A stretch of DNA of 64,000 nucleotides, from the NCBI RefSeq assembly GCF_011045215.1, contig NZ_CP049201.1; one strand, given 5' to 3'. Positions 1 to 61,643 of the stretch are shown here, in pieces. How positions within the stretch are numbered: position 1 is the first letter of the stretch; every line of letters starts with the position of its first letter. The stretch comes from Escherichia coli (GTDB taxonomy: Bacteria > Pseudomonadota > Gammaproteobacteria > Enterobacterales > Enterobacteriaceae). A program made the position numbers and the translations under genes. The notes below the pieces were generated by a model. It was not told where the DNA came from. It saw only the letters and a program-made list of their open reading frames with translations, and ran no database searches.

Positions 1-9
1 ACACTCTTA

Positions 10-375
10 TCATTCGCCGCGATAGATACAACCAGCGGTGCAGGTTTCTTTTACCATCACCGCACTTAACAGCGGCACAACGGGTTTAACCTGATCCCAA
101 ATCCATTTTGCTAAAACTTCGCTAGTTGGGTTTTCCAGACCTGGAATATCATTGAGATAATGGTGATCGAGGCGCTCATAAGTTGGCTTAAACGCCGCTT
201 TTAGTTCAGCGAAATCGATAATCCAGCCCGTATGCGGATCGACTTCCCCGGTAATTTCCAGTCGCACCATAAAGGAATGCCCGTGCAGGCGACCACATTT
301 ATGCCCTTCCGGGACGTGTGGTAAGCGGTGAGCGGCTTCGAAGGTGAAATCTTTAAATAACGTGGTGGACATCAT
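10..375 (-). CDS. queD: 6-carboxy-5,6,7,8-tetrahydropterin synthase (queuosine biosynthesis)
   Basis: ORF 10..459 trimmed to the [10 protein letters not shown] start (121 aa); QueD/PTPS motifs (HGHSF, CxxxxxHGH); divergent from cysJ. Confidence 0.9.
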
Positions 376-690
376 AATTTCTCTACAGGACGATAAAACC
401 GCCGTAGAGTACCGGAAAGGCTGTTTTTTCGCATTATCTAAAACGACTTTGTTGCGCACAATCGCTGATTTATCTTAATGATTGGCTAAATTCATTTGTT
501 TTTCATTAGGTTGGTTAATCTATTTTGTTGTTAAAGACTATTGCTAAAACAGGTTAGTCGATTTGGTTATTAGTTATCGCTATCCCGTCTTTAATCCACA
601 CCGTTCACCCCGTTAACCTTACCTTCTCTTCTGTTTTATGGGCGCTGACAGGGCGCAGAAACAGCTTTGCTTACTGGAACATAACGACGC

Positions 691-2490
691 ATGACGACAC
701 AGGTCCCACCTTCCGCGTTGCTTCCGTTGAACCCGGAGCAACTGGCACGCCTTCAGGCGGCCACGACCGATTTAACTCCCACCCAGCTTGCCTGGGTTTC
801 TGGCTATTTCTGGGGCGTGCTCAATCAGCAGCCTGCTGCGCTTGCAGCGACGCCAGCGCCAGCCGCAGAAATGCCGGGTATAACTATTATCTCCGCCTCG
901 CAAACCGGCAATGCGCGCCGGGTTGCTGAAGCATTACGCGATGATTTATTGACGGCAAAACTGAACGTTAAGCTGGTGAACGCGGGCGACTATAAATTCA
1001 AACAAATCGCCAGCGAAAAACTGCTTATCGTGGTGACGTCAACGCAAGGAGAAGGGGAACCGCCGGAAGAAGCCGTCGCGCTGCATAAGTTCCTGTTCTC
1101 CAAAAAAGCGCCGAAGCTGGAAAACACCGCATTTGCCGTGTTTAGCCTCGGCGATAGCTCTTATGAATTTTTCTGTCAGTCCGGGAAAGATTTTGACAGC
1201 AAGCTGGCGGAACTGGGCGGTGAACGCCTGCTCGACCGTGTCGATGCCGACGTTGAATACCAGACCGCTGCCAGCGAGTGGCGCGCTCGCGTGGTTGATG
1301 CGCTTAAATCGCGTGCGCCTGTCGCGGCACCTTCGCAATCCGTCGCTACTGGCGTGGTAAATGAAATCCACACCAGCCCGTACAGCAAAGACTCGCCGCT
1401 GGTGGCGAGCCTCTCTGTTAACCAGAAAATTACCGGGCGTAACTCTGAAAAAGACGTTCGCCATATCGAAATTGACTTAGGTGACTCGGGCCTGCGTTAC
1501 CAGCCGGGTGACGCGCTGGGTGTCTGGTATCAGAACGATCCGGCACTGGTGAAAGAACTTGTCGAACTGCTGTGGCTGAAAGGCGATGAACCTGTCACCG
1601 TCGAGGGCAAAACGTTGCCTCTGAACGAAGCGCTACAGTGGCACTTCGAACTGACCGTCAACACCGCCAACATTGTTGAGAATTACGCCACGCTTACCCG
1701 CAGCGAAACACTGCTGCCGCTGGTGGGCGATAAAGCGAAGTTACAGCATTACGCCGCGACGACGCCGATTGTTGACATGGTGCGTTTCTCCCCGGCACAG
1801 CTTGATGCCGAAGCGCTAATTAATCTGCTGCGCCCGCTGACGCCGCGTCTCTATTCCATTGCCTCCTCGCAGGCGGAAGTCGAGAACGAAGTACACGTCA
1901 CCGTTGGTGTGGTGCGTTACGACGTGGAAGGCCGCGCCCGTGCCGGTGGTGCCTCCAGCTTCCTCGCTGACCGCGTGGAAGAAGAGGGCGAAGTCCGCGT
2001 ATTTATCGAACATAACGATAACTTCCGCCTACCAGCCAATCCAGAAACCCCGGTGATTATGATTGGCCCAGGCACCGGTATCGCGCCGTTCCGCGCCTTT
2101 ATGCAGCAACGTGCTGCCGATGAAGCACCGGGTAAAAACTGGCTGTTCTTTGGCAACCCGCATTTTACGGAAGATTTCCTCTACCAGGTGGAGTGGCAGC
2201 GCTACGTCAAAGAGGGCGTGCTGACACGTATCGATCTCGCCTGGTCGCGCGATCAAAAAGAAAAAGTTTACGTACAAGACAAACTACGCGAACAGGGCGC
2301 GGAGCTGTGGCGCTGGATCAATGACGGTGCCCACATTTATGTCTGCGGCGACGCTAATCGCATGGCGAAAGACGTTGAGCAGGCACTTCTGGAAGTGATT
2401 GCCGAATTTGGTGGCATGGACACCGAAGCGGCGGATGAATTTTTAAGTGAGCTGCGCGTAGAGCGCCGTTATCAGCGAGATGTCTACTAA
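691..2490 (+). CDS. cysJ: Sulfite reductase [NADPH] flavoprotein alpha subunit
   Basis: 599 aa; flavodoxin-like N-terminal and FAD/NADPH-binding C-terminal domains; first gene of cysJIH. Confidence 0.97.
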
Positions 2491-4202
2491 TGAGCGAAAA
2501 ACATCCAGGGCCTTTAGTGGTCGAAGGAAAACTGACAGACGCCGAGCGCATGAAGCTTGAAAGCAACTACCTGCGCGGCACCATTGCGGAAGATTTAAAC
2601 GACGGTCTGACCGGCGGCTTTAAGGGCGACAACTTCCTGCTGATCCGCTTCCACGGCATGTATCAGCAGGATGACCGCGACATCCGCGCCGAACGTGCTG
2701 AACAGAAGCTGGAGCCGCGCCATGCGATGCTGTTGCGCTGCCGTCTGCCGGGTGGAGTTATCACCACCAAACAGTGGCAGGCGATCGATAAATTTGCCGG
2801 TGAAAACACCATCTATGGCAGCATTCGCCTGACCAACCGCCAGACATTCCAGTTCCACGGCATTCTGAAAAAGAACGTCAAACCGGTGCACCAGATGCTG
2901 CACTCGGTCGGTCTTGATGCGCTGGCGACCGCTAACGACATGAACCGTAACGTACTCTGCACCTCGAACCCTTACGAGTCGCAGCTGCACGCAGAAGCGT
3001 ACGAGTGGGCGAAGAAAATCTCTGAACATCTGCTGCCTCGTACCCGCGCGTATGCGGAGATCTGGCTCGATCAGGAAAAAGTCGCCACCACTGATGAAGA
3101 ACCGATCCTCGGCCAGACCTACCTGCCGCGTAAATTCAAAACCACGGTAGTGATCCCGCCACAGAACGATATCGATCTGCACGCCAACGACATGAACTTC
3201 GTGGCGATCGCCGAAAACGGCAAGCTGGTGGGCTTTAACCTGTTGGTGGGCGGTGGGCTTTCCATCGAACACGGCAACAAGAAAACCTACGCCCGCACCG
3301 CGAGTGAGTTTGGCTATCTGCCGCTAGAGCATACGCTAGCGGTGGCGGAAGCCGTCGTGACAACTCAGCGTGACTGGGGTAACCGAACCGATCGTAAAAA
3401 TGCTAAAACCAAATACACGCTGGAGCGCGTGGGGGTTGAGACGTTTAAAGCGGAAGTGGAGCGTCGCGCGGGGATCAAATTTGAACCGATCCGTCCGTAT
3501 GAGTTCACCGGACGCGGAGATCGTATTGGCTGGGTTAAGGGCATTGATGATAACTGGCACCTGACGCTGTTTATCGAAAATGGTCGCATCCTTGATTATC
3601 CGGGGCGTCCGTTGAAAACCGGCCTGCTGGAGATCGCGAAGATCCACAAAGGTGATTTCCGCATTACGGCGAACCAGAATCTGATCATCGCCGGTGTGCC
3701 GGAAAGCGAGAAAGCGAAGATCGAGAAGATCGCCAAAGAGAGCGGGTTAATGAATGCCGTCACGCCGCAGCGTGAAAACTCAATGGCCTGCGTCTCGTTC
3801 CCGACTTGCCCGCTGGCGATGGCGGAAGCGGAGCGTTTCCTACCGTCTTTTATCGACAACATCGATAATTTAATGGCGAAACATGGTGTTAGCGATGAGC
3901 ATATCGTGATGCGTGTAACAGGCTGCCCGAACGGTTGTGGTCGCGCGATGCTGGCGGAAGTGGGCCTGGTGGGTAAAGCGCCGGGTCGCTACAACCTGCA
4001 TCTTGGCGGCAACCGTATTGGGACACGTATCCCACGGATGTATAAAGAAAACATCACCGAGCCGGAAATCCTGGCGTCGCTTGATGAACTGATAGGGCGC
4101 TGGGCGAAAGAGCGCGAAGCGGGTGAAGGCTTCGGCGACTTTACGGTGCGTGCGGGCATCATTCGCCCGGTGCTCGATCCGGCGCGCGATTTGTGGGATT
4201 AA
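2490..4202 (+). CDS. cysI: Sulfite reductase [NADPH] hemoprotein beta subunit
   Basis: 570 aa; siroheme/4Fe-4S sulfite reductase motifs (TGCPNGC); start overlaps the cysJ stop. Confidence 0.97.
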
Positions 4203-4207
4203 CCATC

Positions 4208-4255
4208 AGCCCGGTCTTGTAGGCCTGATAAGACGCGTGAGCGTCGCATCAGGCA
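4208..4255. repeat. REP-like palindromic unit between cysI and cysH
   Basis: Imperfect palindrome gcctgataagacgcg...cgcgtcgcatcaggc typical of enterobacterial REP elements; coordinates approximate. Confidence 0.6.
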
Positions 4256-4275
4256 AGGCAAACAGTGAGGAATCT

Positions 4276-5010
4276 ATGCCCAAACTCGATCTAAACGCCC
4301 TGAACGAACTGCCGAAGGTAGATCGCATTCTGGCGCTGGCAGAAACTAACGCCCAACTGGAAAAACTGGACGCTGAAGGCCGCGTAGCCTGGGCGCTGGA
4401 TAATCTGCCCGGTGAATATGTGCTTTCTTCCAGCTTCGGCATTCAGGCGGCGGTGAGCCTGCATCTGGTGAATCAGATTCGCCCGGATATTCCAGTGATC
4501 CTCACCGATACCGGTTACTTGTTCCCGGAAACCTACCGCTTTATTGACGAGTTAACGGACAAACTCAAGCTCAACCTGAAAGTGTACCGTGCTACCGAAA
4601 GCGCAGCCTGGCAGGAAGCACGCTACGGAAAACTGTGGGAGCAGGGCGTTGAAGGCATTGAAAAGTACAATGACATCAACAAAGTCGAACCGATGAACCG
4701 GGCGCTGAAAGAACTTAACGCGCAAACGTGGTTTGCTGGCCTGCGCCGTGAACAATCCGGCAGCCGCGCCAATTTACCGGTGCTGGCAATTCAGCGTGGC
4801 GTATTTAAAGTGCTGCCGATTATCGACTGGGATAACCGAACTATTTATCAGTACCTGCAAAAACATGGCCTGAAATATCACCCATTATGGGACGAAGGAT
4901 ATTTATCGGTGGGCGATACCCATACAACTCGTAAATGGGAACCCGGCATGGCGGAAGAAGAAACGCGTTTCTTTGGCTTAAAAAGGGAATGTGGGTTACA
5001 CGAAGGGTAA
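4276..5010 (+). CDS. cysH: Phosphoadenosine phosphosulfate (PAPS) reductase
   Basis: ORF 4123..5010 trimmed to the MPKLDLNAL start (244 aa); PAPS reductase family with C-terminal ECGLH motif; GAGG RBS upstream. Confidence 0.95.
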
Positions 5011-5028
5011 TTAATGCCGGATAAATTA

Positions 5029-5066
5029 AACGCCTCTGTCAGAAATGATGGGGGCGTTTTTATTTT
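5029..5066 (+). terminator. Putative rho-independent terminator downstream of cysH
   Basis: GC-rich inverted repeat (aaacgcc...ggcgttt) followed by a T-run; approximate. Confidence 0.4.
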
Positions 5067-5274
5067 GCGAGCAGCATTCCTGATTTTAAACGTGAACGCC
5101 GCTGGAAGAATTATCAGGTATAGAATGGCGTCGGGTGCTTGAGGCTGTCTGGCGTTAAGCATTCGCGAGGTTCCAGATGGACAAAAGCCCCAGGCGATAT
5201 TTCTATCAACCTGAGGCCAGCGTTCGAACCTAAGCAATTCGAATGTTAGTCTCTTCTTTGCAGGGAGGCAAGAC

Positions 5275-5427
5275 ATGCTGACAAAATATGCCCTTGTGGC
5301 AATCATCGTACTGTGTTGTACAGTACTGGGATTCACGCTGATGGTAGGCGACTCGTTGTGTGAGTTGAGTATCAGAGAACGTGGTATGGAGTTTAAGGCT
5401 GTTCTCGCTTACGAATCGAAGAAGTAG
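5275..5427 (+). CDS. hokX: Hok/Gef-family type I toxin (small membrane peptide)
   Basis: 50-aa ORF not in the track (below size cutoff): [50 protein letters not shown]; GGAGG RBS 6-10 nt upstream; hairpin downstream; symbol assigned from position in the cysH-cas3 intergenic region. Confidence 0.75.
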
Positions 5428-5459
5428 CCACCACGCGGGGGTAAAACCCCGCGTATTGA

Positions 5460-5619
5460 ATTGTGATGGTTTGGTCTCCTGCACCCTTTTTTAAATTTAT
5501 ATTTTTTATGTGAATATATTGTCTCTATTTATTATTATGAATTTCAAATGAAAATCATAAATTTATTCACAATATAAATGTTTTATTGGCTGATATATAT
5601 CACAGATAATTTTTAAAAT
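5460..5619 (+). promoter_or_regulatory. AT-rich region upstream of cas3 (likely cas3 promoter and nucleoid-protein silencing region)
   Basis: About 160 bp of very AT-rich sequence immediately 5' of cas3; no specific motifs mapped. Confidence 0.4.
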
Positions 5620-8319
5620 ATGCGTAAATATCCTTTAAGTTTACTGAAGGATAAAAATATTGTGACTTTCTTTGATTTCTGGGGAAAAACCCGACGCGAC
5701 GAGAAAGAAGGGGGTGACGACTATCACCTTCTTTGCTGGCATTCGCTGGATGTGGCCGCGATGGGCTATTTAATGGTTAAAAGAAATTGCTTCGGGCTGG
5801 CTGATTATTTTCGTCAATTAGGGATTTCTGACAAGGAACAGGCGGCTCAATTTTTCGCCTGGTTGTTGTGCTGGCACGATATTGGAAAATTTGCCCGCTC
5901 ATTTCAGCAACTTTACCTGCACCCACAACTCAAGGTTCCGGAAGGCGCAAGAAAGAATTACGAAAAGATCTCTCATTCAACGCTGGGCTACTGGTTGTGG
6001 CATCATTATTTAAGTGAATGCGAAGAATTGCTTCCTGCCTCTTCACTCTCTACTCGCAAACTTAAACGTGTAATAGCGATGTGGATGCCCATGACTACCG
6101 GGCATCATGGTCGGCCCCCTGACCGTATTGATGAACTGGATAATTTTCTGCCTGAAGACAAAGTTGCCGCGCGAGATTTTCTCCTTGAAATCAAGGCACT
6201 GTGTCCGCTCATAGAGATTCCCACATTCTGGGATAATGACGAGGGAGTTGAACTTTTAAAACAACTTTCCTGGTATATCTCTGCAACAGTCGTACTTGCA
6301 GACTGGACGGGTTCGTCAACGCGATTTTTTCCACGCGTCGCACACCCAATGGATATTAAAGATTACTGGCAGAAAACTTTAGTTCAGGCTCAAAACGCCT
6401 TAACCGTCTTTCCTCCAAAAGCAGAAACCGCACCTTTCACCGGAATTAATACGCTGTTTCCTTTTATTGAGCACCCGACACCATTACAGCAAAAGGTGCT
6501 GGATCTGGATATCAGCCAGCCAGGGCCACAGTTATTTATTCTGGAAGACGTGACTGGCGCAGGTAAAACAGAAGCGGCGCTTATCCTGGCGCACAGGTTG
6601 ATGGCTGCGAGGAAAGCACAGGGTTTGTTTTTTGGCCTGCCAACAATGGCAACGGCCAATGCCATGTACGATCGGCTGGTCAAAACCTGGCTTGCTTTCT
6701 TTTCGCCAGAATCCCGCCCCAGCCTGGTGCTGGCACACAGCGCCCGTACATTAATGGAACGCTTTAATGAATCACTCTGGTCCGGTGATTTAGTCGGGTC
6801 AGAAGAACCGGATGAACAAGCGTTCAGTCAAGGATGTGCAGCCTGGTTTGCCGACAGTAACAAGAAGGCTTTACTGGCTGAAATTGGCGTCGGCACGCTG
6901 GATCAGGCGATGATGGCAGTGATGCCGTTTAAACATAATAATCTGCGGCTTCTGGGGTTGAGTAACAAAATCCTGCTGGCTGATGAGATCCACGCCTGTG
7001 ACGCTTACATGTCGTACATTCTTGAAGGGTTGATTGAGCGACAGGTGCGTGGCGGAAACAGCGTCATTTTGCTTTCTGCTACGTTATCTCAACAGCAGCG
7101 CGACAAACTTGTCGCCGCCTTTGCGCGTGGCACAGAGGGCCAGCAAGAAGCTCCGTTCCTGGAAAAGGATGATTACCCCTGGCTGACGCATGTCACGAAA
7201 TCCGATGTGCATTCGCACCGGGTAGCGACGCGCAAAGACGTTGAGCGTAGCGTGAGCGTGGGTTGGCTTCATAGCGAACAAGAATGTATTGCGCGTATCG
7301 AATCAGCGGTAAGTCAGGGGAAATGCATCGCCTGGATCCGGAATTCTGTCGATGACGCTATTAAGGTTTATCGTCAGTTACTTGCCCGCGGCGTCATTCC
7401 TGCTTCCAGCCTTTCACTTTTTCATAGCCGCTTTGCTTTTAGCGATCGCCAGCGAATTGAAACGGAAACGCTGGCACGCTTTGGTAAAAATTGTAGTTTA
7501 AAAAGATCATCTCAAGTCATTGTTTGTACACAAGTAATTGAGCAAAGTGTGGATATTGACCTGGACGAAATGATCTCCGACCTGGCCCCCATTGATTTGC
7601 TGATCCAGCGAGCGGGGCGATTACAACGGCATATTCGCGATATTAATGGTCAGTTAAAGCGTGATGGAAAAGACGAGCGTTCCCCTCCTGAATTGCTGAT
7701 TCTGGCCCCCGTCTGGGACGACTCTCCGGGTGACGAATGGTTTGGCAGTGCGATGCGTAACAGCGCATATGTCTACCCCGATCATGGGCGAATCTGGCTG
7801 ACGCAGCGAGTATTGCGTGAGCAAGGCGCTATTCAGATGCCACACGCAGCCCGGCTTCTTATTGAATCCGTCTACGGTGAGGACGTGGTAATGCCGGAAG
7901 GATTTGCCCGCAGCGAGCAGGAGCAAGTGGGCAAATATTACTGCGATCGCGCAATGGCTAAAAAGTTTATGCTGAACTTCAGGCCCGGCTATGCCGCCAA
8001 TATCAACGATTACCTCCCGGAAAAGCTGTCGACACGTCTGGCTGAAGAGTCTGTTTCCCTGTGGCTGGCTACCTGTATTGACGGTGTGGTGAAGCCTTAT
8101 GCCAGCGGTGCTCACGCATGGGAAATGAGCGTTGCCAGAGTGCGTCGAAGCTGGTGGAAAAAACATCGGGATGAATTTTCTTTACTGGAAGGGGAAGCGT
8201 TCAGGCAGTGGTGTGTTGAACAACGGCAAGATCCGGAGATGGCAAACGTGATTTTAGTCACTGATGACGAAAGTTGCGGGTATTCGGCCAGGGAGGGATT
8301 GATTGGCAAGGTTGATTGA
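5620..8319 (+). CDS. cas3: Type I-E CRISPR-associated helicase/nuclease Cas3 (HD nuclease + SF2 helicase)
   Basis: 899 aa; N-terminal HD motifs (HLLCWHSLDVAA, WHDIGK), Walker A (GAGKTEAA) and DExH-like LADEIHA; start taken from the only upstream ATG, true start may be an internal GTG. Confidence 0.93.
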   Translation: MRKYPLSLLKDKNIVTFFDFWGKTRRDEKEGGDDYHLLCWHSLDVAAMGYLMVKRNCFGLADYFRQLGISDKEQAAQFFAWLLCWHDIGKFARSFQQLYLHPQLKVPEGARKNYEKISHSTLGYWLWHHYLSECEELLPASSLSTRKLKRVIAMWMPMTTGHHGRPPDRIDELDNFLPEDKVAARDFLLEIKALCPLIEIPTFWDNDEGVELLKQLSWYISATVVLADWTGSSTRFFPRVAHPMDIKDYWQKTLVQAQNALTVFPPKAETAPFTGINTLFPFIEHPTPLQQKVLDLDISQPGPQLFILEDVTGAGKTEAALILAHRLMAARKAQGLFFGLPTMATANAMYDRLVKTWLAFFSPESRPSLVLAHSARTLMERFNESLWSGDLVGSEEPDEQAFSQGCAAWFADSNKKALLAEIGVGTLDQAMMAVMPFKHNNLRLLGLSNKILLADEIHACDAYMSYILEGLIERQVRGGNSVILLSATLSQQQRDKLVAAFARGTEGQQEAPFLEKDDYPWLTHVTKSDVHSHRVATRKDVERSVSVGWLHSEQECIARIESAVSQGKCIAWIRNSVDDAIKVYRQLLARGVIPASSLSLFHSRFAFSDRQRIETETLARFGKNCSLKRSSQVIVCTQVIEQSVDIDLDEMISDLAPIDLLIQRAGRLQRHIRDINGQLKRDGKDERSPPELLILAPVWDDSPGDEWFGSAMRNSAYVYPDHGRIWLTQRVLREQGAIQMPHAARLLIESVYGEDVVMPEGFARSEQEQVGKYYCDRAMAKKFMLNFRPGYAANINDYLPEKLSTRLAEESVSLWLATCIDGVVKPYASGAHAWEMSVARVRRSWWKKHRDEFSLLEGEAFRQWCVEQRQDPEMANVILVTDDESCGYSAREGLIGKVD

Positions 8320-8408
8320 GATGCCTGCGACAGAGACTCTCTGAATAGTTGATACACCGAAAAGGATGGATAACCGACCTGGATGGTCTTTTTTACGAGA
8401 GGATGCGT

Positions 8409-9971
8409 ATGAACTTGTTTTCACTTCTGACAACCCCGTGGTTGCCCGTTCGTTTTAAAGACGGAACGACAGGCAAACTGGCGCCAGTCGATCTGGCTGA
8501 TGAAAATGTTGTCGATATCGCCGCGCCGCGAGCAGATTTACAAGGTGCGGCATGGCAGTTTTTGCTGGGGCTACTACAAACCAGCTTTGCGCCAAAAGAT
8601 CATCGTCGTTGGGATGATATCTGGGAAGACGGACTGGAAGCTGAAAAGCTAAGGGAAGCATTGCTGTCATTAGAACATGCTTTCCAGTTTGGCCCAGATT
8701 CCCCTTCATTTATGCAGGATTTTGAGGCGCTCACGGGAGATAAAGTTCAGGTCGCTTCGCTACTGCCTGATGTTCCCGGCGCTCAAACGACGAAGTTTAA
8801 TAAAGACCATTTTATCAAGCGTGGTGTAACGGAATATCTGTGCCCCCATTGTTTAGCATTGGCCTTGTTCTCTTTACAGTTGAATGCACCAGCGGGTGGC
8901 AAAGGCTATCGCACCGGTTTGCGCGGCGGTGGGCCGATGACCACTCTGATTGAATTACAGGAATATCAGGGCAATCAACAAACACCCTTATGGCGCAAAC
9001 TGTGGCTCAACGTGATGCCGCAGGATGAAGCCGACTTACCGCTACCCCAAAAATTTGACGATCTGGTTTTCCCCTGGCTTGGCCCGACGCGTACCAGCGA
9101 ACTGGCCGGTGCGGTGGTAACCGATGATCAGGTTAATAAACTCCAGGCGTACTGGGGAATGCCACGGCGTATTCGTATTGATTTTAATACCACCACAGTC
9201 GGCAACTGCGATATTTGCGGTGAGCAGAGCGACGCGCTTCTGAGCCTGATGACGACCAAAAATTACGGCGCTAACTATGCCATGTGGCAGCATCCCTTAA
9301 CGCCTTACCGTGTACCACTTAAAGAGGGCGGCGAGTTTTACTCAGTTAAACCACAACCGGGCGGTTTAATCTGGCGCGACTGGTTAGGCCTTATCGAAAC
9401 GGGGAAATCAGAAAACAATACGGAACTTCCCGCGCTGGTGGTGAAACTCTTTAATGCCAGCAGTCTGAAACAGGCAAAAGTGGGCCTGTGGGGATTTGGT
9501 TATGATTTTGACAACATGAAAGCGCGCTGTTGGTACGAGCACCATTTCCCGCTTCTGCTCAATAAAAAAGAAGGCCAGATACCGAAACTGCGGCTGGCTG
9601 CGCAAACGGCTTCACGGATTCTGAGTCTGTTACGGAGTGCATTGAAAGAAGCGTGGTTCTCCGATCCAAAAGGTGCACGGGGTGATTTCAGTTTTGTGGA
9701 TATCGACTTCTGGAACAAAACTCAGCATCGCTTCCTGAGGTTAGTGCGCCAAATTGAAGAAGGTCAGGATGCGGATGAATTACTCGGCAAATGGCAAAAG
9801 GAAATTTGGTTATTCGCACGTCAGGATTTTGACGAGCGTGTATTCACCAATCCTTATGAGCCCGTTGATTTGGAACGCGTCATGACCGCGCGCAAGAAAT
9901 ATTTTACAACATCGGCGGAGAAGCAAAGTGCTAAAGCCGCCAGGGAGAAAAAGCAGGAGGCTGCTGAATGA
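8409..9971 (+). CDS. casA: Cascade large subunit Cse1/Cas8e
   Basis: ORF 8349..9971 trimmed to MNLFSLLTTPWLPVR (520 aa), matching the Cse1 N-terminus pattern MNL...W.PVR; conserved GLRGGGPMTTL loop region; GAGAGG RBS. Confidence 0.9.
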   Translation: MNLFSLLTTPWLPVRFKDGTTGKLAPVDLADENVVDIAAPRADLQGAAWQFLLGLLQTSFAPKDHRRWDDIWEDGLEAEKLREALLSLEHAFQFGPDSPSFMQDFEALTGDKVQVASLLPDVPGAQTTKFNKDHFIKRGVTEYLCPHCLALALFSLQLNAPAGGKGYRTGLRGGGPMTTLIELQEYQGNQQTPLWRKLWLNVMPQDEADLPLPQKFDDLVFPWLGPTRTSELAGAVVTDDQVNKLQAYWGMPRRIRIDFNTTTVGNCDICGEQSDALLSLMTTKNYGANYAMWQHPLTPYRVPLKEGGEFYSVKPQPGGLIWRDWLGLIETGKSENNTELPALVVKLFNASSLKQAKVGLWGFGYDFDNMKARCWYEHHFPLLLNKKEGQIPKLRLAAQTASRILSLLRSALKEAWFSDPKGARGDFSFVDIDFWNKTQHRFLRLVRQIEEGQDADELLGKWQKEIWLFARQDFDERVFTNPYEPVDLERVMTARKKYFTTSAEKQSAKAAREKKQEAAE

Positions 9972-10504
9972 GTATTGTAAAAGAGGAGCACAAAGCCACG
10001 CTGCGCAAATGGCATGAGGAATTGCAGGAGAAACGCGGCGAACGTGCCAGTCTGCGGCGTAGTACGACGGTTAATGATGTTTGTCTGACGGATGGATTTC
10101 GCCTGTTTCTGAAGAACAGACAAATAAAGTGGCAGGATGAACCTGAATGGCGTATTACCGCACTGGCGCTGATAGCCGCACTTAGCGCTAATGTTAAAGC
10201 CATTGATGAACGGCTGCCTTTTGCTGCGCAGCTGGCGGCGGTAATGTCAAAGGGGCGTTTTACTCGCCTGTCGGCAGTAAAAACACCGGATGAATTACTG
10301 CGCCAGTTACGCCGCGCAGTCAGATTATTAAACGGTTCCGTTAATCTTGACTCTCTGGCAGAGGGTGTCTTCCGCTGGTGCCAGGAGAGCGACGATCTGC
10401 TCAATCATCACCGCCGTCATCAGCGGCCAACCGAATTTATCCGTATCCGCTGGGCGCTGGAATATTACCAGGCTGGCGACGCCGATAACGAACAAAATCA
10501 ATAA
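9968..10504 (+). CDS. casB: Cascade small subunit Cse2/Cas11
   Basis: 178 aa basic helical protein; ATG overlaps the cse1 stop (ATGA); position between cse1 and cas7. Confidence 0.85.
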   Translation: MSIVKEEHKATLRKWHEELQEKRGERASLRRSTTVNDVCLTDGFRLFLKNRQIKWQDEPEWRITALALIAALSANVKAIDERLPFAAQLAAVMSKGRFTRLSAVKTPDELLRQLRRAVRLLNGSVNLDSLAEGVFRWCQESDDLLNHHRRHQRPTEFIRIRWALEYYQAGDADNEQNQ

Positions 10505-10515
10505 AGGACTATCTC

Positions 10516-11571
10516 ATGACGACATTTATTCAGCTTCATTTGTTAACCGCTTACCCTGCAGCCAACCTTAACCGTGATGACACCGGAGCGCCGAAAACCG
10601 TGGTCCTGGGTGGAGCAACGCGACTGCGCGTTTCCTCGCAAAGTCTGAAACGTGCGTGGCGCACTTCTGCACTTTTTGAACAGGCACTGGCGGGCCATAT
10701 TGGTATTCGCAGTGGGCGTATTGCGCGTGAGGCGGCAACGATCCTGATTGAGAAAGGCATCGAAGAGAAAAAAGCCATCGAATGGGCGGCAAAAATTGCG
10801 GATTATCTTGGGAAAGCTAAAAACGACAAAAAACCAAAAGATCCGCTCACTAACGCCGAAACTGAACAATTAGTCCATATCAGCCCGGCAGAATTTGACG
10901 CCGTAAAAGCGCTGGCCCATCAACTGGCCGAAGAAAAGCGCGCGCCAAAAGAGGAAGATCTCGCTTTGTTACGTAAAGATCGCATGGCGGTAGATATCGC
11001 TATGTTTGGTCGTATGCTGGCGAATAAACCCGAATTTAATGTTGAAGCCGCCTGCCAGGTCGCGCATGCATTTGGTGTCAGTGAAACGATTGTCGAAGAT
11101 GATTTTTTCACCGCCGTTGATGATTTGCGCCAGGCTTCTGAAGATGCCGGTGCCGGGCATCTTGGTGAAACCGGATTCGGTTCTGCGCTGTTCTACACCT
11201 ATATCTGCATCGATAAAGATCTGCTGGTCGAAAACCTCGGCGGTGACGAAGCGTTAGCTAATCAGACCTTGCGCGCCTTTACGGAAGCCGCACTTAAAGT
11301 CTCCCCAACCGGCAAACAGAACAGCTTTGCCAGCCGTGCCTACGCCTCCTGGGCGCTGGCAGAAAAAGGGACTGAACAACCACGCTCTCTGGCGGCGGCT
11401 TTCTATGAACCCATTAATGGCACCCGGCAGTTAGATGTGGCGGTGCAGCGTATTACAACGCTTCGCGAAAATATGAATACGGTCTATGAACAGAAGACCG
11501 AATGCGCAAGCTTTGACGTGATGAACAAACAGGGAAGCATGAAGGACGTGCTGGACTTTATCTGCGCGTAA
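10516..11571 (+). CDS. casC: Cascade backbone subunit Cas7e
   Basis: 351 aa; Cas7e-like N-terminal region (LTAYPAANLNRDD...SSQSLKRAWR); third gene of the effector operon. Confidence 0.9.
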   Translation: MTTFIQLHLLTAYPAANLNRDDTGAPKTVVLGGATRLRVSSQSLKRAWRTSALFEQALAGHIGIRSGRIAREAATILIEKGIEEKKAIEWAAKIADYLGKAKNDKKPKDPLTNAETEQLVHISPAEFDAVKALAHQLAEEKRAPKEEDLALLRKDRMAVDIAMFGRMLANKPEFNVEAACQVAHAFGVSETIVEDDFFTAVDDLRQASEDAGAGHLGETGFGSALFYTYICIDKDLLVENLGGDEALANQTLRAFTEAALKVSPTGKQNSFASRAYASWALAEKGTEQPRSLAAAFYEPINGTRQLDVAVQRITTLRENMNTVYEQKTECASFDVMNKQGSMKDVLDFICA

Positions 11572-11581
11572 GGGGCGGCTA

Positions 11582-12328
11582 ATGAGCCAATATTTGATTT
11601 TTCAGCTTCATGGGCCAATGGCATCCTGGGGCGTCGATGCCCCCGGCGAAGTGCGTCATACCCATGAACTGCCTTCGCGCTCAGCATTGCTGGGGCTGCT
11701 GGCTGCCGGGGTAGGGATTCGGCGTGATGATACCGAACGATTAAACGCGTTTAACCGCCACTATTCACTGGTGGTTTGCGCCAGCCGTAACCCGCGCTGG
11801 GCACGGGATTATCACACGATCCAGATGCCAAAAGAGGTGCGTAAAGCGCGTTATTTCAGCCGTCGCGAAGAGTTGAGCGACCCTGATCTTCTGAGCGCGA
11901 TTATCTCCCGGCGCGACTACTACACCGACGCCTGGTGGATGGTGGCGGTGGCAACAACAGCCGATGCGCCTTACAGCCTCGAACAGTTGCAGGGCGGTTT
12001 ACGCCATCCAGTTTTTCCTCTTTATCTGGGGCGAAAAAGTCATCCGCTGGCATTACCACTTGCGCCGTTACTGCTCGAAGGCAACGCGTCTGATGTTTTA
12101 CGTAACGCATATCACCAGTATCAGGAGCATTTCCACGACCTGAAAATCGCACTCCCGAAACTTCAGGATGAATGCTGGTGGGAAGGGGAGCACGACGGCC
12201 TGGTCGCGAGCAAAATATTGCGCCGCCGGGATGTTCCTTTAAATCGTCAGCAATGGCTGTTTGGGGAACGCACCGTCAATCAGGGGCCGTGGCTCAGCAA
12301 GGAGGAACCATGTACCTCTCAAGAATAA
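11582..12328 (+). CDS. casD: Cascade subunit Cas5e
   Basis: 248 aa; N-terminus QLHGPMASWG...LPSRSALLGLLAAGVGIRRDD resembles Cas5e. Confidence 0.9.
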   Translation: MSQYLIFQLHGPMASWGVDAPGEVRHTHELPSRSALLGLLAAGVGIRRDDTERLNAFNRHYSLVVCASRNPRWARDYHTIQMPKEVRKARYFSRREELSDPDLLSAIISRRDYYTDAWWMVAVATTADAPYSLEQLQGGLRHPVFPLYLGRKSHPLALPLAPLLLEGNASDVLRNAYHQYQEHFHDLKIALPKLQDECWWEGEHDGLVASKILRRRDVPLNRQQWLFGERTVNQGPWLSKEEPCTSQE

Positions 12329-12956
12329 CCTTACATACCGGCCAGCTTTCGCCTGCGCAGTTGCTGCATCTGGTGGAGCGCGGGGAATATGTGATGCATC
12401 AGTGGCTGTGGGATCTCTTCCCTGGCGGCAAAGAAAGGCAATTTCTTTATCGTCGGGAAGAACTCCAGGGCGCGTTTCGCTTTTTTGTACTGTCGCAGGA
12501 ACGCCCGGCGGAAAGTGAAACGTTCACCATCGAATGCCGGTCATTTGTGCCCGAGCTGCGTACCGGACAACAACTTTGTTTCAACCTGCGGGCGAATCCA
12601 ACAATCTGTAAAGCGGGCAAGCGCCACGATCTGCTGATGGAGGCGAAACGGCAGGTGAGGGGGCAGGCGGAAGGAAGTGATGTCTGGTTGCATCAACAAC
12701 AGGCGGCGCTGGACTGGCTGGCAGCGCAGGGGGAGAGAAGCGGTTTTACACTGCTGGATACCTCGGTTGATGCCTACCGACAACAGCAACTGCGGCGGGA
12801 AAACTCCCGGCAACTGATCCAGTTCAGTAGCGTGGATTATACGGGGATGCTTACGGTCACCGATCCCGGGTTATTTCTGCAACGTCTCAGTCAGGGGTAT
12901 GGCAAAAGCCGCGCGTTCGGCTGTGGTCTGATGCTGATCAAACCCGGAGCAGAGGC

Positions 12957-12960
<4 letters not shown>
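12310..12960 (+). CDS. casE: Cas6e pre-crRNA endoribonuclease
   Basis: ORF 12172..12960 trimmed to MYLSRITLH (216 aa) preceded by an AAGGAGGA RBS; C-terminal glycine-rich GxGxxxxxGxG loop; overlaps the cas5 3' end. Confidence 0.9.
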
Positions 12961-14170
<1,210 letters not shown>

Positions 14171-14266
14171 GTTATGTGTTCTTTAAAAATAAGGAAATGT
14201 TTGAATTTAGTTGGTAGATTGTTGATGTGGAATAAATTTGTTTAAAAACAGATATGTATGCTTAGT
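14171..14266 (+). promoter_or_regulatory. CRISPR leader (AT-rich; array promoter and integration-proximal region)
   Basis: 96-bp AT-rich sequence between the cas2 stop and the first repeat. Confidence 0.8.
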
Positions 14267-14478
14267 GTGTTCCCCGCGCCAGCGGGGATAAACCGGTGCA
14301 TAAAAAATGATACCCCAGCGTTTCGTTGTGTTCCCCGCGCCAGCGGGGATAAACCGATTGAAATAGATCTCCCCGACATTAACGAACAGTGTTCCCCGCG
14401 CCAGCGGGGATAAACCGGGCGCACTGGATGCGATGATGGATATCACTTAGAATTCCCCGCCCCTGCGGTAGAACTCCC
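14267..14478 (+). CRISPR. Type I-E CRISPR array: 4 repeats (29 bp) and 3 spacers (32 bp)
   Basis: Repeat GTGTTCCCCGCGCCAGCGGGGATAAACCG at 14267-14295, 14328-14356 and 14389-14417; degenerate terminal repeat GAATTCCCCGCCCCTGCGGTAGAACTCCC at 14450-14478; spacers at 14296-14327, 14357-14388 and 14418-14449. Confidence 0.97.
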
Positions 14479-14498
14479 AGCTCCCATTTTCAAACCCA

Positions 14499-15536
14499 TC
14501 AAGACGCCTTCGCCAGCTCCTTCACCAGTGGTAGCATTATCCGCATAACATCACGGCAGCGACGTTCTATTCTTCCAGGAAGTGCCTTATCAATATGCTG
14601 TTGATTATCAAGCCTTACATCATGCCAGCTATTTCCCGCAGGGAATGCGGCTGTTTTTGCGCGTTGCTGATAACCATCTTTATTCCCAAGATTCCAGTTA
14701 GTCGCTTCCACCGAAAGTACAGCAATGCCCGCTTTGTCGAATATTTCTGCGTCATTACAACACCCAGTGCCTTTCGGATAATTTTTATTCAAACCCGGAT
14801 TGGTCGTTGCGGCTATTCCGTGACTGCGCGCAATTGCCAGCGCCCTGTCGCGCGTTAATTTCCTTACTGCTTCAGGGGTTTTTACACCGCTGTTGAAATA
14901 CAATTTATCGCCAACAATTAAGTTATCGAGATTAATCACCAGCAGCGTATTTTTCTTTTCGGTGTCACTCATCCGCTTGAGTAAATTCTCAGCGCCTAAT
15001 TTCCCTTCCTCTTCGCCGCTGGTCGCCACAAATCGAATACCATACTCGGTAGGCGTATTTTTCAGGCGTTCTGCCAATTCCAGCATGACACCTAAACCTG
15101 CGGCGTTATCATCCATTCCTTGTAACGTCAGCCCGCCGAGATTGGCATCGGCGTCAGCATCGCTCAGCGGGGCGTAAGTATCCAGATGCGCCATAATGAT
15201 GATCTGCTGCGGCGCTTTGCCTTCATGAGCGGCAATCACCGTACTTCCCGTCACGTTATGCCAGCTCTTGCGATTATCGCGGGCGGTATAAATATACCGA
15301 CTATTAAATGTCCGAATATCACTGCGATAACCCATTTGCTGAAACTGTTGGCGAATATAATCGGCAGATAACATTTCTGCAGGAGTTCCGGTCATGCGTC
15401 CCGGAAAGAAAGTAGCAATATGTCGTGCCTGGGTATTAGCAAAATCGCCAGGTTTAGGTGACGAGGCGTGTACGGGGAGAATAAAGCATACGCCGAGCGC
15501 CAGGGCAGCGGTACGGTGGCGCAATGCGGAAAACAT
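14499..15536 (-). CDS. iap: Alkaline phosphatase isozyme conversion aminopeptidase
   Basis: 345 aa with signal peptide; M28-family peptidase; conserved position next to the CRISPR array. Confidence 0.93.
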   Translation of the reverse strand: MFSALRHRTAALALGVCFILPVHASSPKPGDFANTQARHIATFFPGRMTGTPAEMLSADYIRQQFQQMGYRSDIRTFNSRYIYTARDNRKSWHNVTGSTVIAAHEGKAPQQIIIMAHLDTYAPLSDADADANLGGLTLQGMDDNAAGLGVMLELAERLKNTPTEYGIRFVATSGEEEGKLGAENLLKRMSDTEKKNTLLVINLDNLIVGDKLYFNSGVKTPEAVRKLTRDRALAIARSHGIAATTNPGLNKNYPKGTGCCNDAEIFDKAGIAVLSVEATNWNLGNKDGYQQRAKTAAFPAGNSWHDVRLDNQQHIDKALPGRIERRCRDVMRIMLPLVKELAKAS

Positions 15537-15787
15537 AGTGAGTCCTTAAATACCATGCAAATTTTTTTACCGCCATAGTATGAAACTGCCGCTGCGCTAA
15601 AACAATTTCAAATCTTCCTAAACGCCCGAAATCCGGTGCCTTAAGCACTTTTTGATATTAGCTTTGCCAAATCGTTATTCCGTTAAGGAACTACTCATTC
15701 TAATTGGTAATTTCATTCGTTCTCTTACGCTCCCTATAGTCGAAACATCTGATGGCAAGAAAATAGCGGTATTGCAAAGGAACGGTT

Positions 15788-16696
15788 ATGGATCAAAAAC
15801 GACTTACCCACCTACGACAGCTGGAGGCGGAAAGCATCCACATCATTCGCGAGGTGGCGGCAGAATTCTCAAATCCGGTGATGCTCTACTCTATCGGTAA
15901 AGATTCCAGCGTCATGCTGCATCTGGCGCGCAAGGCGTTTTATCCAGGTACGCTGCCTTTCCCGTTGCTGCATGTCGATACCGGCTGGAAATTCCGCGAG
16001 ATGTATGAGTTCCGCGATCGTACTGCTAAAGCCTACGGCTGCGAGCTGCTGGTGCATAAAAACCCGGAAGGCGTGGCGATGGGGATTAATCCATTCATAC
16101 ACGGCAGCGCGAAACATACCGATATTATGAAAACTGAAGGCCTGAAACAGGCCCTGAATAAATACGGTTTTGATGCCGCCTTCGGTGGTGCGCGCCGTGA
16201 CGAAGAGAAATCCCGCGCTAAAGAGCGAATCTATTCTTTCCGTGACCGCTTCCATCGCTGGGATCCGAAAAATCAGCGCCCGGAGCTGTGGCACAACTAC
16301 AACGGGCAAATTAACAAAGGTGAAAGCATCCGCGTCTTCCCGCTCTCTAACTGGACCGAGCAGGATATCTGGCAATACATCTGGCTGGAAAATATCGACA
16401 TTGTGCCGCTGTATCTCGCTGCGGAACGTCCGGTTCTGGAACGCGACGGTATGTTGATGATGATTGATGACAACCGTATCGACCTGCAACCGGGCGAAGT
16501 GATTAAAAAACGGATGGTGCGTTTCCGTACGCTGGGCTGCTGGCCGCTGACCGGTGCGGTGGAGTCAAATGCACAAACACTGCCGGAGATCATCGAAGAG
16601 ATGCTGGTTTCTACCACCAGTGAACGTCAGGGCCGCGTGATTGACCGCGACCAGGCGGGGTCTATGGAGCTGAAAAAACGTCAGGGGTATTTTTAA
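15788..16696 (+). CDS. cysD: Sulfate adenylyltransferase subunit 2
   Basis: 302 aa; PAPS-reductase-like ATP sulfurylase small subunit; first gene of cysDNC. Confidence 0.97.
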
Positions 16697-18779: not shown

Positions 18780-19103
18780 ATGCGTAATAGCCATAACATT
18801 ACACTAACAAATAACGACAGCCTTACTGAGGATGAAGAAACCACATGGTCACTGCCTGGTGCCGTGGTCGGTTTTATCTCCTGGTTATTTGCGCTGGCGA
18901 TGCCGATGTTGATTTATGGCTCTAACACGCTGTTCTTCTTTATCTACACCTGGCCTTTCTTTCTGGCACTGATGCCTGTCGCGGTAGTGGTGGGGATTGC
19001 GCTGCATTCATTGATGGACGGAAAGCTACGCTACAGTATTGTTTTCACCCTGATGACAGTAGGCATTATGTTTGGCGCACTGTTTATGTGGCTACTGGGC
19101 TAA
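18780..19103 (+). CDS. ygbE: Inner membrane protein YgbE (DUF3561)
   Basis: 107 aa hydrophobic protein; conserved position after cysC. Confidence 0.85.
   Translation: MRNSHNITLTNNDSLTEDEETTWSLPGAVVGFISWLFALAMPMLIYGSNTLFFFIYTWPFFLALMPVAVVVGIALHSLMDGKLRYSIVFTLMTVGIMFGALFMWLLG

Positions 19104-60488: not shown

Positions 60489-61643
<1,155 letters not shown>

Follow-up and report, generated by a model that had tools for sequence, protein, structure and literature searches.

Two described loci are among the closest to the CRISPR array studied here. In E. coli K-12 MG1655 the array known as CRISPR I or CRISPR2.1 (NC_000913.3, about 2,877,6xx–2,878,5xx) occupies the same position, in the order cas2, leader, array and iap, and likewise consists of 32-nt spacers repeated with a period of 61 nt. 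The CRISPR1 array of O157:H7/O55:H7 (FDAARGOS_293, NZ_CP022050.2) also shares the layout of the present locus, with three repeats, three spacers and a degenerate repeat. New spacers are known to be acquired in a leader-polarised manner, internal units are usually the ones lost, and recombination between repeats or slippage are the usual mechanisms (PMC8047081). Trailer ends are described as stable and terminal repeats as polymorphic in general (PMC8047081), and the role of the last spacers has been considered uncertain because of their degenerate repeats (PMC4422515). H-NS silencing, an AAG PAM, sites for IHF and Cas1-Cas2 and a weak leader promoter in K-12 have been reported as well (PMC10011333).

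We analysed a 64-kb stretch of E. coli DNA, referred to below as the window, in which a preliminary description had placed a three-spacer CRISPR array at 14267–14478. These coordinates and the spacer sequences given with them proved exact. The assignment to the E. coli type I-E system is confirmed by the cas protein models, the gene order and the leader: the array is E. coli type I-E CRISPR1 (CRISPR2.1) with the O157-type cas variant, located between cas2 and iap. Short arrays had been described as typical of some pathogenic E. coli lineages, which is consistent with the three-spacer layout of O157 and with published work (PMC4489801). The observations as a whole are best explained by a CRISPR1 type I-E array that was shortened by an internal collapse of 348 bp, a reading to which we assign a probability of about 85%.

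The array, its cas operon and its leader

The direct repeat GTGTTCCCCGCGCCAGCGGGGATAAACCG is 29 nt long and is present in the 64-kb window in three exact copies at a spacing of 61 nt. All elements of the array lie on the plus strand. Repeat 1 (14267–14295) is proximal to the leader and is followed by spacer 1 (S1, GTGCATAAAAAATGATACCCCAGCGTTTCGTT, 32 nt, 14296–14327), repeat 2 (14328–14356), spacer 2 (S2, ATTGAAATAGATCTCCCCGACATTAACGAACA, 32 nt, 14357–14388), repeat 3 (14389–14417) and spacer 3 (S3, 32 nt, 14418–14449). Repeats 1 to 3 all have the exact consensus sequence. The array is closed by the degenerate repeat GAATTCCCCGCCCCTGCGGTAGAACTCCC (14450–14478), in which 18 of 29 bases match the consensus. 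A strongly mutated last repeat had been noted before as expected for the leader-distal end, and the leader is indeed found at the opposite end, on the side of cas2. The three exact copies conform to the E. coli I-E repeat type GWGTTCCCCGCGCCAGCGGGGATAAACCG and match the K-12 consensus at 28 of 29 positions.

The 27-nt core of the repeat was matched three times, compared to zero matches expected from 100 shuffles, and no further copy was detected elsewhere in the window when up to three mismatches were allowed. This repeat-core search also revealed no second E. coli I-E array region in the window; such an array has been reported at a distance of about 24 kb (PMC4489801). Tandem Repeats Finder returned no rows for positions 13000–16000, which was to be expected with one half of each repeat-spacer unit being unique. 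None of the Rfam CRISPR repeat families was detected, neither at the gathering threshold nor at E≤1; there was merely a chance match to Chlorobi-1 with 16.7 bits. A miss in Rfam is uninformative for an element of 29 nt, and the array call is not weakened by the blank results of the two programs.

The intact repeat is predicted to fold into a hairpin with a 7-bp stem and a GCCA loop (−15.2 kcal/mol, z = −3.2), a palindromic core as it would be needed for a stem-loop of the Cas6e type. For the terminal repeat the predicted hairpin is down to 4 bp at −6.4 kcal/mol.

All eight cas open reading frames are uninterrupted and located on the plus strand, and seven of the eight score above the cut-off of type I-E-specific NCBIfam models. 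The operon starts with cas3 (5620–8319, 899 aa), which exceeds the cut-offs of the generic models cas3_core (227 bits) and cas3_HD (88 bits) only and stays below the full-length model NF007248 (430 bits versus a cut-off of 569); the protein is colinear with Cas3 of O157 at 94.8% amino acid identity and has no internal stops. It is followed by casA/cse1 (8409–9971, 520 aa; TIGR02547, 613 bits; 97.1% amino acid identity to O157), casB/cse2 (9968–10504, 178 aa; TIGR02548, 99 bits; 98.9%), cas7e/casC (10516–11571, 351 aa; TIGR01869, 448 bits; 100%), cas5e/casD (11582–12328, 248 aa; TIGR01868, 158 bits; 95.2%), cas6e/casE encoding the pre-crRNA endonuclease (12310–12960, 216 aa; TIGR01907, 292 bits; 99.1%), cas1e with a GTG start (12957–13880, 307 aa; TIGR03638, 379 bits; 99.4%) and cas2e (13877–14170, 97 aa; TIGR01873, 134 bits; 100%), all of them intact. 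On the other side of the array the aminopeptidase gene iap (14499–15536, minus strand; NF007568, 705 bits) serves as a flanking marker outside of the CRISPR system. K-12 and O157 have iap at this position too, and cysD, cysN and cysC are found beyond it. The order cysH, hok/sok, cas3 to cas2, leader, array, iap and cysD is common to the window, K-12 MG1655 and O157 FDAARGOS_293.

The hok/sok toxin-antitoxin module is located directly upstream of the cas operon and is annotated likewise in O157. A sok antitoxin RNA was detected between cysH and cas3 at 5133–5290 on the plus strand (Rfam RF01794, 111.7 bits, E 1.4e-24), and a Hok/Gef open reading frame of 50 aa is called in the identical region of two related contigs, L003 and L004, which are introduced below.

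Between the cas2 stop codon and repeat 1 lies the leader (14171–14266, plus strand), which comprises 96 nt with an AT content of 75% as compared to 46.8% for the window. Its sequence is 100% identical to the leader of O157 and to that of 11 of the 12 other O157-type loci examined, and the same leader accompanies arrays of up to 18 repeats in O157-type loci. Scanning the leader for a simple sigma-70 consensus gave no promoter match, a weak negative considering the simplicity of the scan.

A spurious open reading frame of 79 aa runs across the array on the minus strand (14207–14446). An exact-protein look-up with CasA and with this frame returned no record, and a homology search with the frame for further arrays containing S1 and S2 yielded only generic array-encoded frames with at most 71% identity. 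Protein databases contain many spurious reading frames of this kind that run across I-E arrays, with the submitter-given names ‘DUF2825’ or ‘CRISPR associated protein of unknown function’. They were seen in E. coli, Salmonella, Pectobacterium, Dickeya and Cronobacter.

Relatives of the locus and origin of the short array

Among 5426 complete E. coli genomes the best identity was 99.2% for cysDNC and 96.5% for the block from cas to array and iap, the latter to O55:H7 and O157:H7 strains. A first comparison had given about 92% identity because the spacers contained in the query mismatched. An origin outside E. coli, as this figure might suggest, was dismissed in view of the 99.2% identity of cysDNC to E. 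coli and of cas2 and the leader, which equal those of O157. On the nucleotide level the individual genes differ in their similarity to O157: identity is 100% for cas2 and the leader and 99.5–99.7% for cas1, cas6e, cas7 and casB, and lower values were obtained for cas5 (96.5%), casA (94.9%) and cas3 (94.6%). An indel of 8 bp distinguishes the window from O157 between cas3 and casA. This mosaic divergence from the O157 operon along 5620–14266 suggests recombination breakpoints inside the operon.

In a large assembly collection the exact Cas3 protein of the window was present on two contigs only, namely CAJVFD010000005.1 of GCA_910665095.1 (L003) and a contig of the Logan assembly of SRR11014969 (L004). 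Because of this scarcity and of the modest best identities, the window is assigned to a rare E. coli lineage carrying an O157-type cas-E variant. L004 is 100% identical to positions 1–14416 of the window, and the contig ends inside repeat 3. L004 and the window may stem from a single isolate, and L004 therefore possibly offers no independent confirmation. Over 14,356 nt upstream, L003 and the window differ by seven SNPs, and 3,615 nt downstream are free of differences. S1 is also present in L003, L004 and a third sequence, L008 (GCA_025989065.1), and S2 in L003 and L004; beyond the window, the two spacers were seen solely in such rare draft assemblies. As a separate observation, the cas2 stop codon TAG is changed to TGG in L003 (18549–18551, corresponding to 14168–14170 of the window, A to G at 14169), and the called Cas2 product is lengthened from 97 to 122 aa, reaching into the leader.

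The array's trailer end is shared much more widely. S3 was found in 3744 of the 5426 complete E. coli genomes (about 69%), once per genome and inside annotated CRISPR features. It is the terminal spacer in all 14 loci compared, K-12 and O157 included, with no more than one base difference. The terminal degenerate repeat shows at most two differences across the O157-type loci compared, and the K-12 version is more divergent. Since this anchor occurs species-wide, the mutated terminal repeat is ancient and not the result of recent decay. S3 and the degenerate repeat form a fixed ancestral anchor of the species that carries no lineage information. The suggestion that the spacer set may identify the lineage thus applies in part: as S3 is shared across the species, it fails as a marker, and S1 and S2 are the sole lineage-informative spacers.

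Comparison of the window to L003 relates the short array to a longer one. Starting at the leader, the array of L003 contains S1, Sa, a truncated unit with a repeat of 17 nt, Sc, Sc again, Sd (33 nt), Se, S2 and S3 and ends with the same terminal repeat. It follows the window up to position 14356, continues with 348 extra bases and resumes at 14357. The 348-bp block starts and stops at corresponding points of two repeats that have the same sequence. The extra sequence comprises six internal units, among them a truncated repeat, a tandem-duplicated spacer and a 33-nt spacer. L008, whose flanks are only about 96% identical to the window, agrees with L003 at every base of S1, Sa, the truncated repeat and the spacer remnant; Sd comes next, and six younger spacers lie upstream of S1. 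The junction of S1, repeat and S2 is found in L004 too, and adjacency of S1 and S2 is confined to the window and L004.

Because spacers enter at the leader end and S1 is adjacent to Sa in two backgrounds, the adjacency of S1 and S2 would be the product of a deletion. The shortness of the window array is therefore best explained by the loss of six internal units and not by the acquisition of three spacers only, the direction of the 348-bp indel being judged from three arrays. From an ancestor of the structure S1-Sa-(truncated unit)-Sc-Sc-Sd-Se-S2-S3, the six internal units (348 bp) would have been deleted when identical repeats recombined or replication slipped between them, and repeat 2 of the window would mark the junction.

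The truncated unit itself deserves a comment. It is 42 nt long (L003 18770–18811, L008 about 9203–9244) and consists of a repeat cut to about 14–17 nt that is fused to a spacer remnant. Its sequence is identical in the two genomes despite flanks that are only about 96% identical. The unit is either an old scar inherited by both genomes, or a block of the array moved between lineages.

The opposite direction of change, in which the three-spacer array is older and L003 gained six units later by recombination with the array of another strain or by off-site integration, would be in line with the documented ability of E. coli strains to exchange CRISPR-cas modules (PMC3903273), with the mosaic cas operon of the window relative to O157, and with L008, which holds part of the block in a different background so that such blocks can evidently sit in different genomes. 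However, S1 is leader-proximal to the extra block in L003 as well as in L008, and the two copies of the block agree even in the truncated repeat, so that the adjacency of S1 and Sa is the shared state. An import would furthermore have to start and end exactly within repeats, keeping S1 and leaving the flanks unaltered, with no difference downstream. One deletion is simpler and a commonly observed event (PMC8047081), and we consider a later gain in L003 very unlikely.

We also considered that a longer array might have been shortened by a short-read assembler that skipped from its repeat 2 to its repeat 8. Such a jump is conceivable because the repeats are identical and S1 and Se both end in T; assemblies are well known to collapse in CRISPR arrays, the L004 contig stops inside repeat 3 as if the assembler had struggled, and the tandem duplicate of Sc in L003 is hard to assemble too. 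On the other hand, the window and SRR11014969, as two data sets, have the identical junction of S1, repeat and S2. By reasoning alone, a de Bruijn graph of an L003-type array would be expected to fork at repeat 2, so that the contig ends there, whereas L004 passes through repeat 2 unbroken, and the window is contiguous over the array for 64 kb. An assembly artefact is thus highly improbable in our view, and loss of the six internal units remains the preferred explanation.

Spacer targets and expected function

The preliminary description had proposed to search the spacers against phages, plasmids, E. coli genomes and the genome itself. These searches were carried out and did not turn up a protospacer for S1, S2 or S3 in the collections covered, and consequently no PAM could be read. 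S1 and S2 had no match in 50,697 phages or 72,556 plasmids (blastn, word size 11, E≤10), a mode that gave weak chance matches in other searches and hence works. Against the 5426 complete E. coli genomes, megablast matched S3 only, and blastn with S1 and S2 gave only matches of E=2 that span the artificial S1/S2 junction of the concatenated query. In type I-E crRNA every sixth position is unpaired. When S1 and S2 were searched with N at every sixth position no match was found in IMG/VR, in GTDB representative genomes or in JGI metagenome contigs, and a search of IMG/VR with 20-mers taken from each half of the two spacers gave no exact match either. Self-targeting inside the window was not detected with up to three mismatches, and a full-text search of a paper library for the three spacer sequences found no paper. 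S3 gave only chance matches of 19–21 nt in phages; among plasmids its matches were limited to mislabelled chromosomes and one IncHI2 plasmid with a copy of the locus. Spacers of E. coli I-E arrays typically go unmatched (PMC10011333).

The plasmid matches of S3 are worth recording on their own. A copy of cas5e-cas6e-cas1e-cas2e-CRISPR-iap including the anchor spacer, a segment that is normally chromosomal, is present on pIOMTU792, a conjugative IncHI2 plasmid from E. coli (293 kb; NZ_LC542972.1, 243939–249967). The PLSDB entries NZ_OL790696.1, NZ_CP141089.1 and NZ_CP134663.1 hold the CRISPR1 anchor spacer as well; at 4.8–4.9 Mb they look like chromosomes filed as plasmids.

A target was found for one of the spacers that are absent from the window. 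Sc (GCTGGCCAAAGAGAACAGGGCACGTATTGATG), present in L003 as a tandem duplicate (18841–18872 and 18902–18933), matches traC of IncF conjugative plasmids at 32 of 32 positions. Among plasmids it matches 2295 records, with an identity of at least 99% in 1377 cases, and it gave no match in phages. In R100 (NC_002134.1) the protospacer lies at 61130–61161 and is flanked by CTG, not AAG, with only the G being canonical. Protospacers in F plasmids have been reported earlier for E. coli arrays (PMC4422515).

The collapse thus took out an anti-IncF spacer, which may be of interest for the conflict between CRISPR and plasmids in E. coli. One might speculate that the 348-bp collapse was selected, since removal of the two traC-matching spacer copies would have freed the lineage to carry an F-type plasmid. 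If true, this would be a natural case of I-E array pruning for plasmid tolerance, and a supposedly silent system would exert real pressure in the wild. The non-canonical CTG flank in R100 and the known silencing by H-NS weaken this idea, and we regard it as unlikely.

Following the established I-E pathway, a weak promoter in the AT-rich leader would give rise to the array transcript. Cas6e would bind the 7-bp hairpin of each repeat and cut at its 3’ base, and the product would be a crRNA of 61 nt composed of the 8-nt handle AUAAACCG, the 32-nt spacer and a 21-nt hairpin handle. The crRNAs would then steer Cascade and Cas3 to a matching protospacer beside a PAM of the AAG type, and Cas1-Cas2 together with IHF would insert new spacers at repeat 1. 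Type I-E crRNA retains the hairpin of the downstream repeat with Cas6e bound to it. Two standard crRNAs are expected, those of S1 and S2, because only these spacers have intact repeats on both sides. A crRNA of S3 is doubtful since the hairpin of the following repeat is largely destroyed according to the folding prediction, and we infer that S3 probably does not mature into a standard crRNA. H-NS probably represses the system under ordinary conditions and leaves it largely silent, as it does in other E. coli.

Comparison with known CRISPR1 loci

The locus is a textbook example of the already known E. coli I-E CRISPR1, and an identical sequence is already contained in a public read set. Its anchor, its collapse and its orphan spacers are ordinary CRISPR population biology. 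For subtyping, S1 and S2 mark a rare lineage and are absent from the 5426 complete genomes. The window and GCA_910665095.1 form a clean natural example of repeat-mediated collapse between near-identical genomes.

Compared to K-12 MG1655, the last spacer equals S3 except for its final base, and the degenerate repeat and the sequence downstream of it are homologous; the last full repeat of K-12 also begins with GTGTT. K-12 has 13 spacers as opposed to three in the window, and the anchor is the sole spacer in common. Its cas genes and leader belong to the other, divergent cas-E variant, the leader being clearly different, whereas the operon of the window best fits O157/O55. O157 FDAARGOS_293 has the identical S3, and its identity to the window amounts to 100% for cas2 and the 96-nt leader and to 99.7% for cas1. 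Differences to O157 lie in spacers 1 and 2, which are unrelated to those of the window, in the third repeat, which is the variant GCATCAGC, and in cas3 and casA, which show about 95% nucleotide identity with the 8-bp indel between them. L003 belongs to the same lineage and shares S1, S2, S3, the terminal repeat and Cas3 with the window, from which it differs by the six additional units (348 bp).
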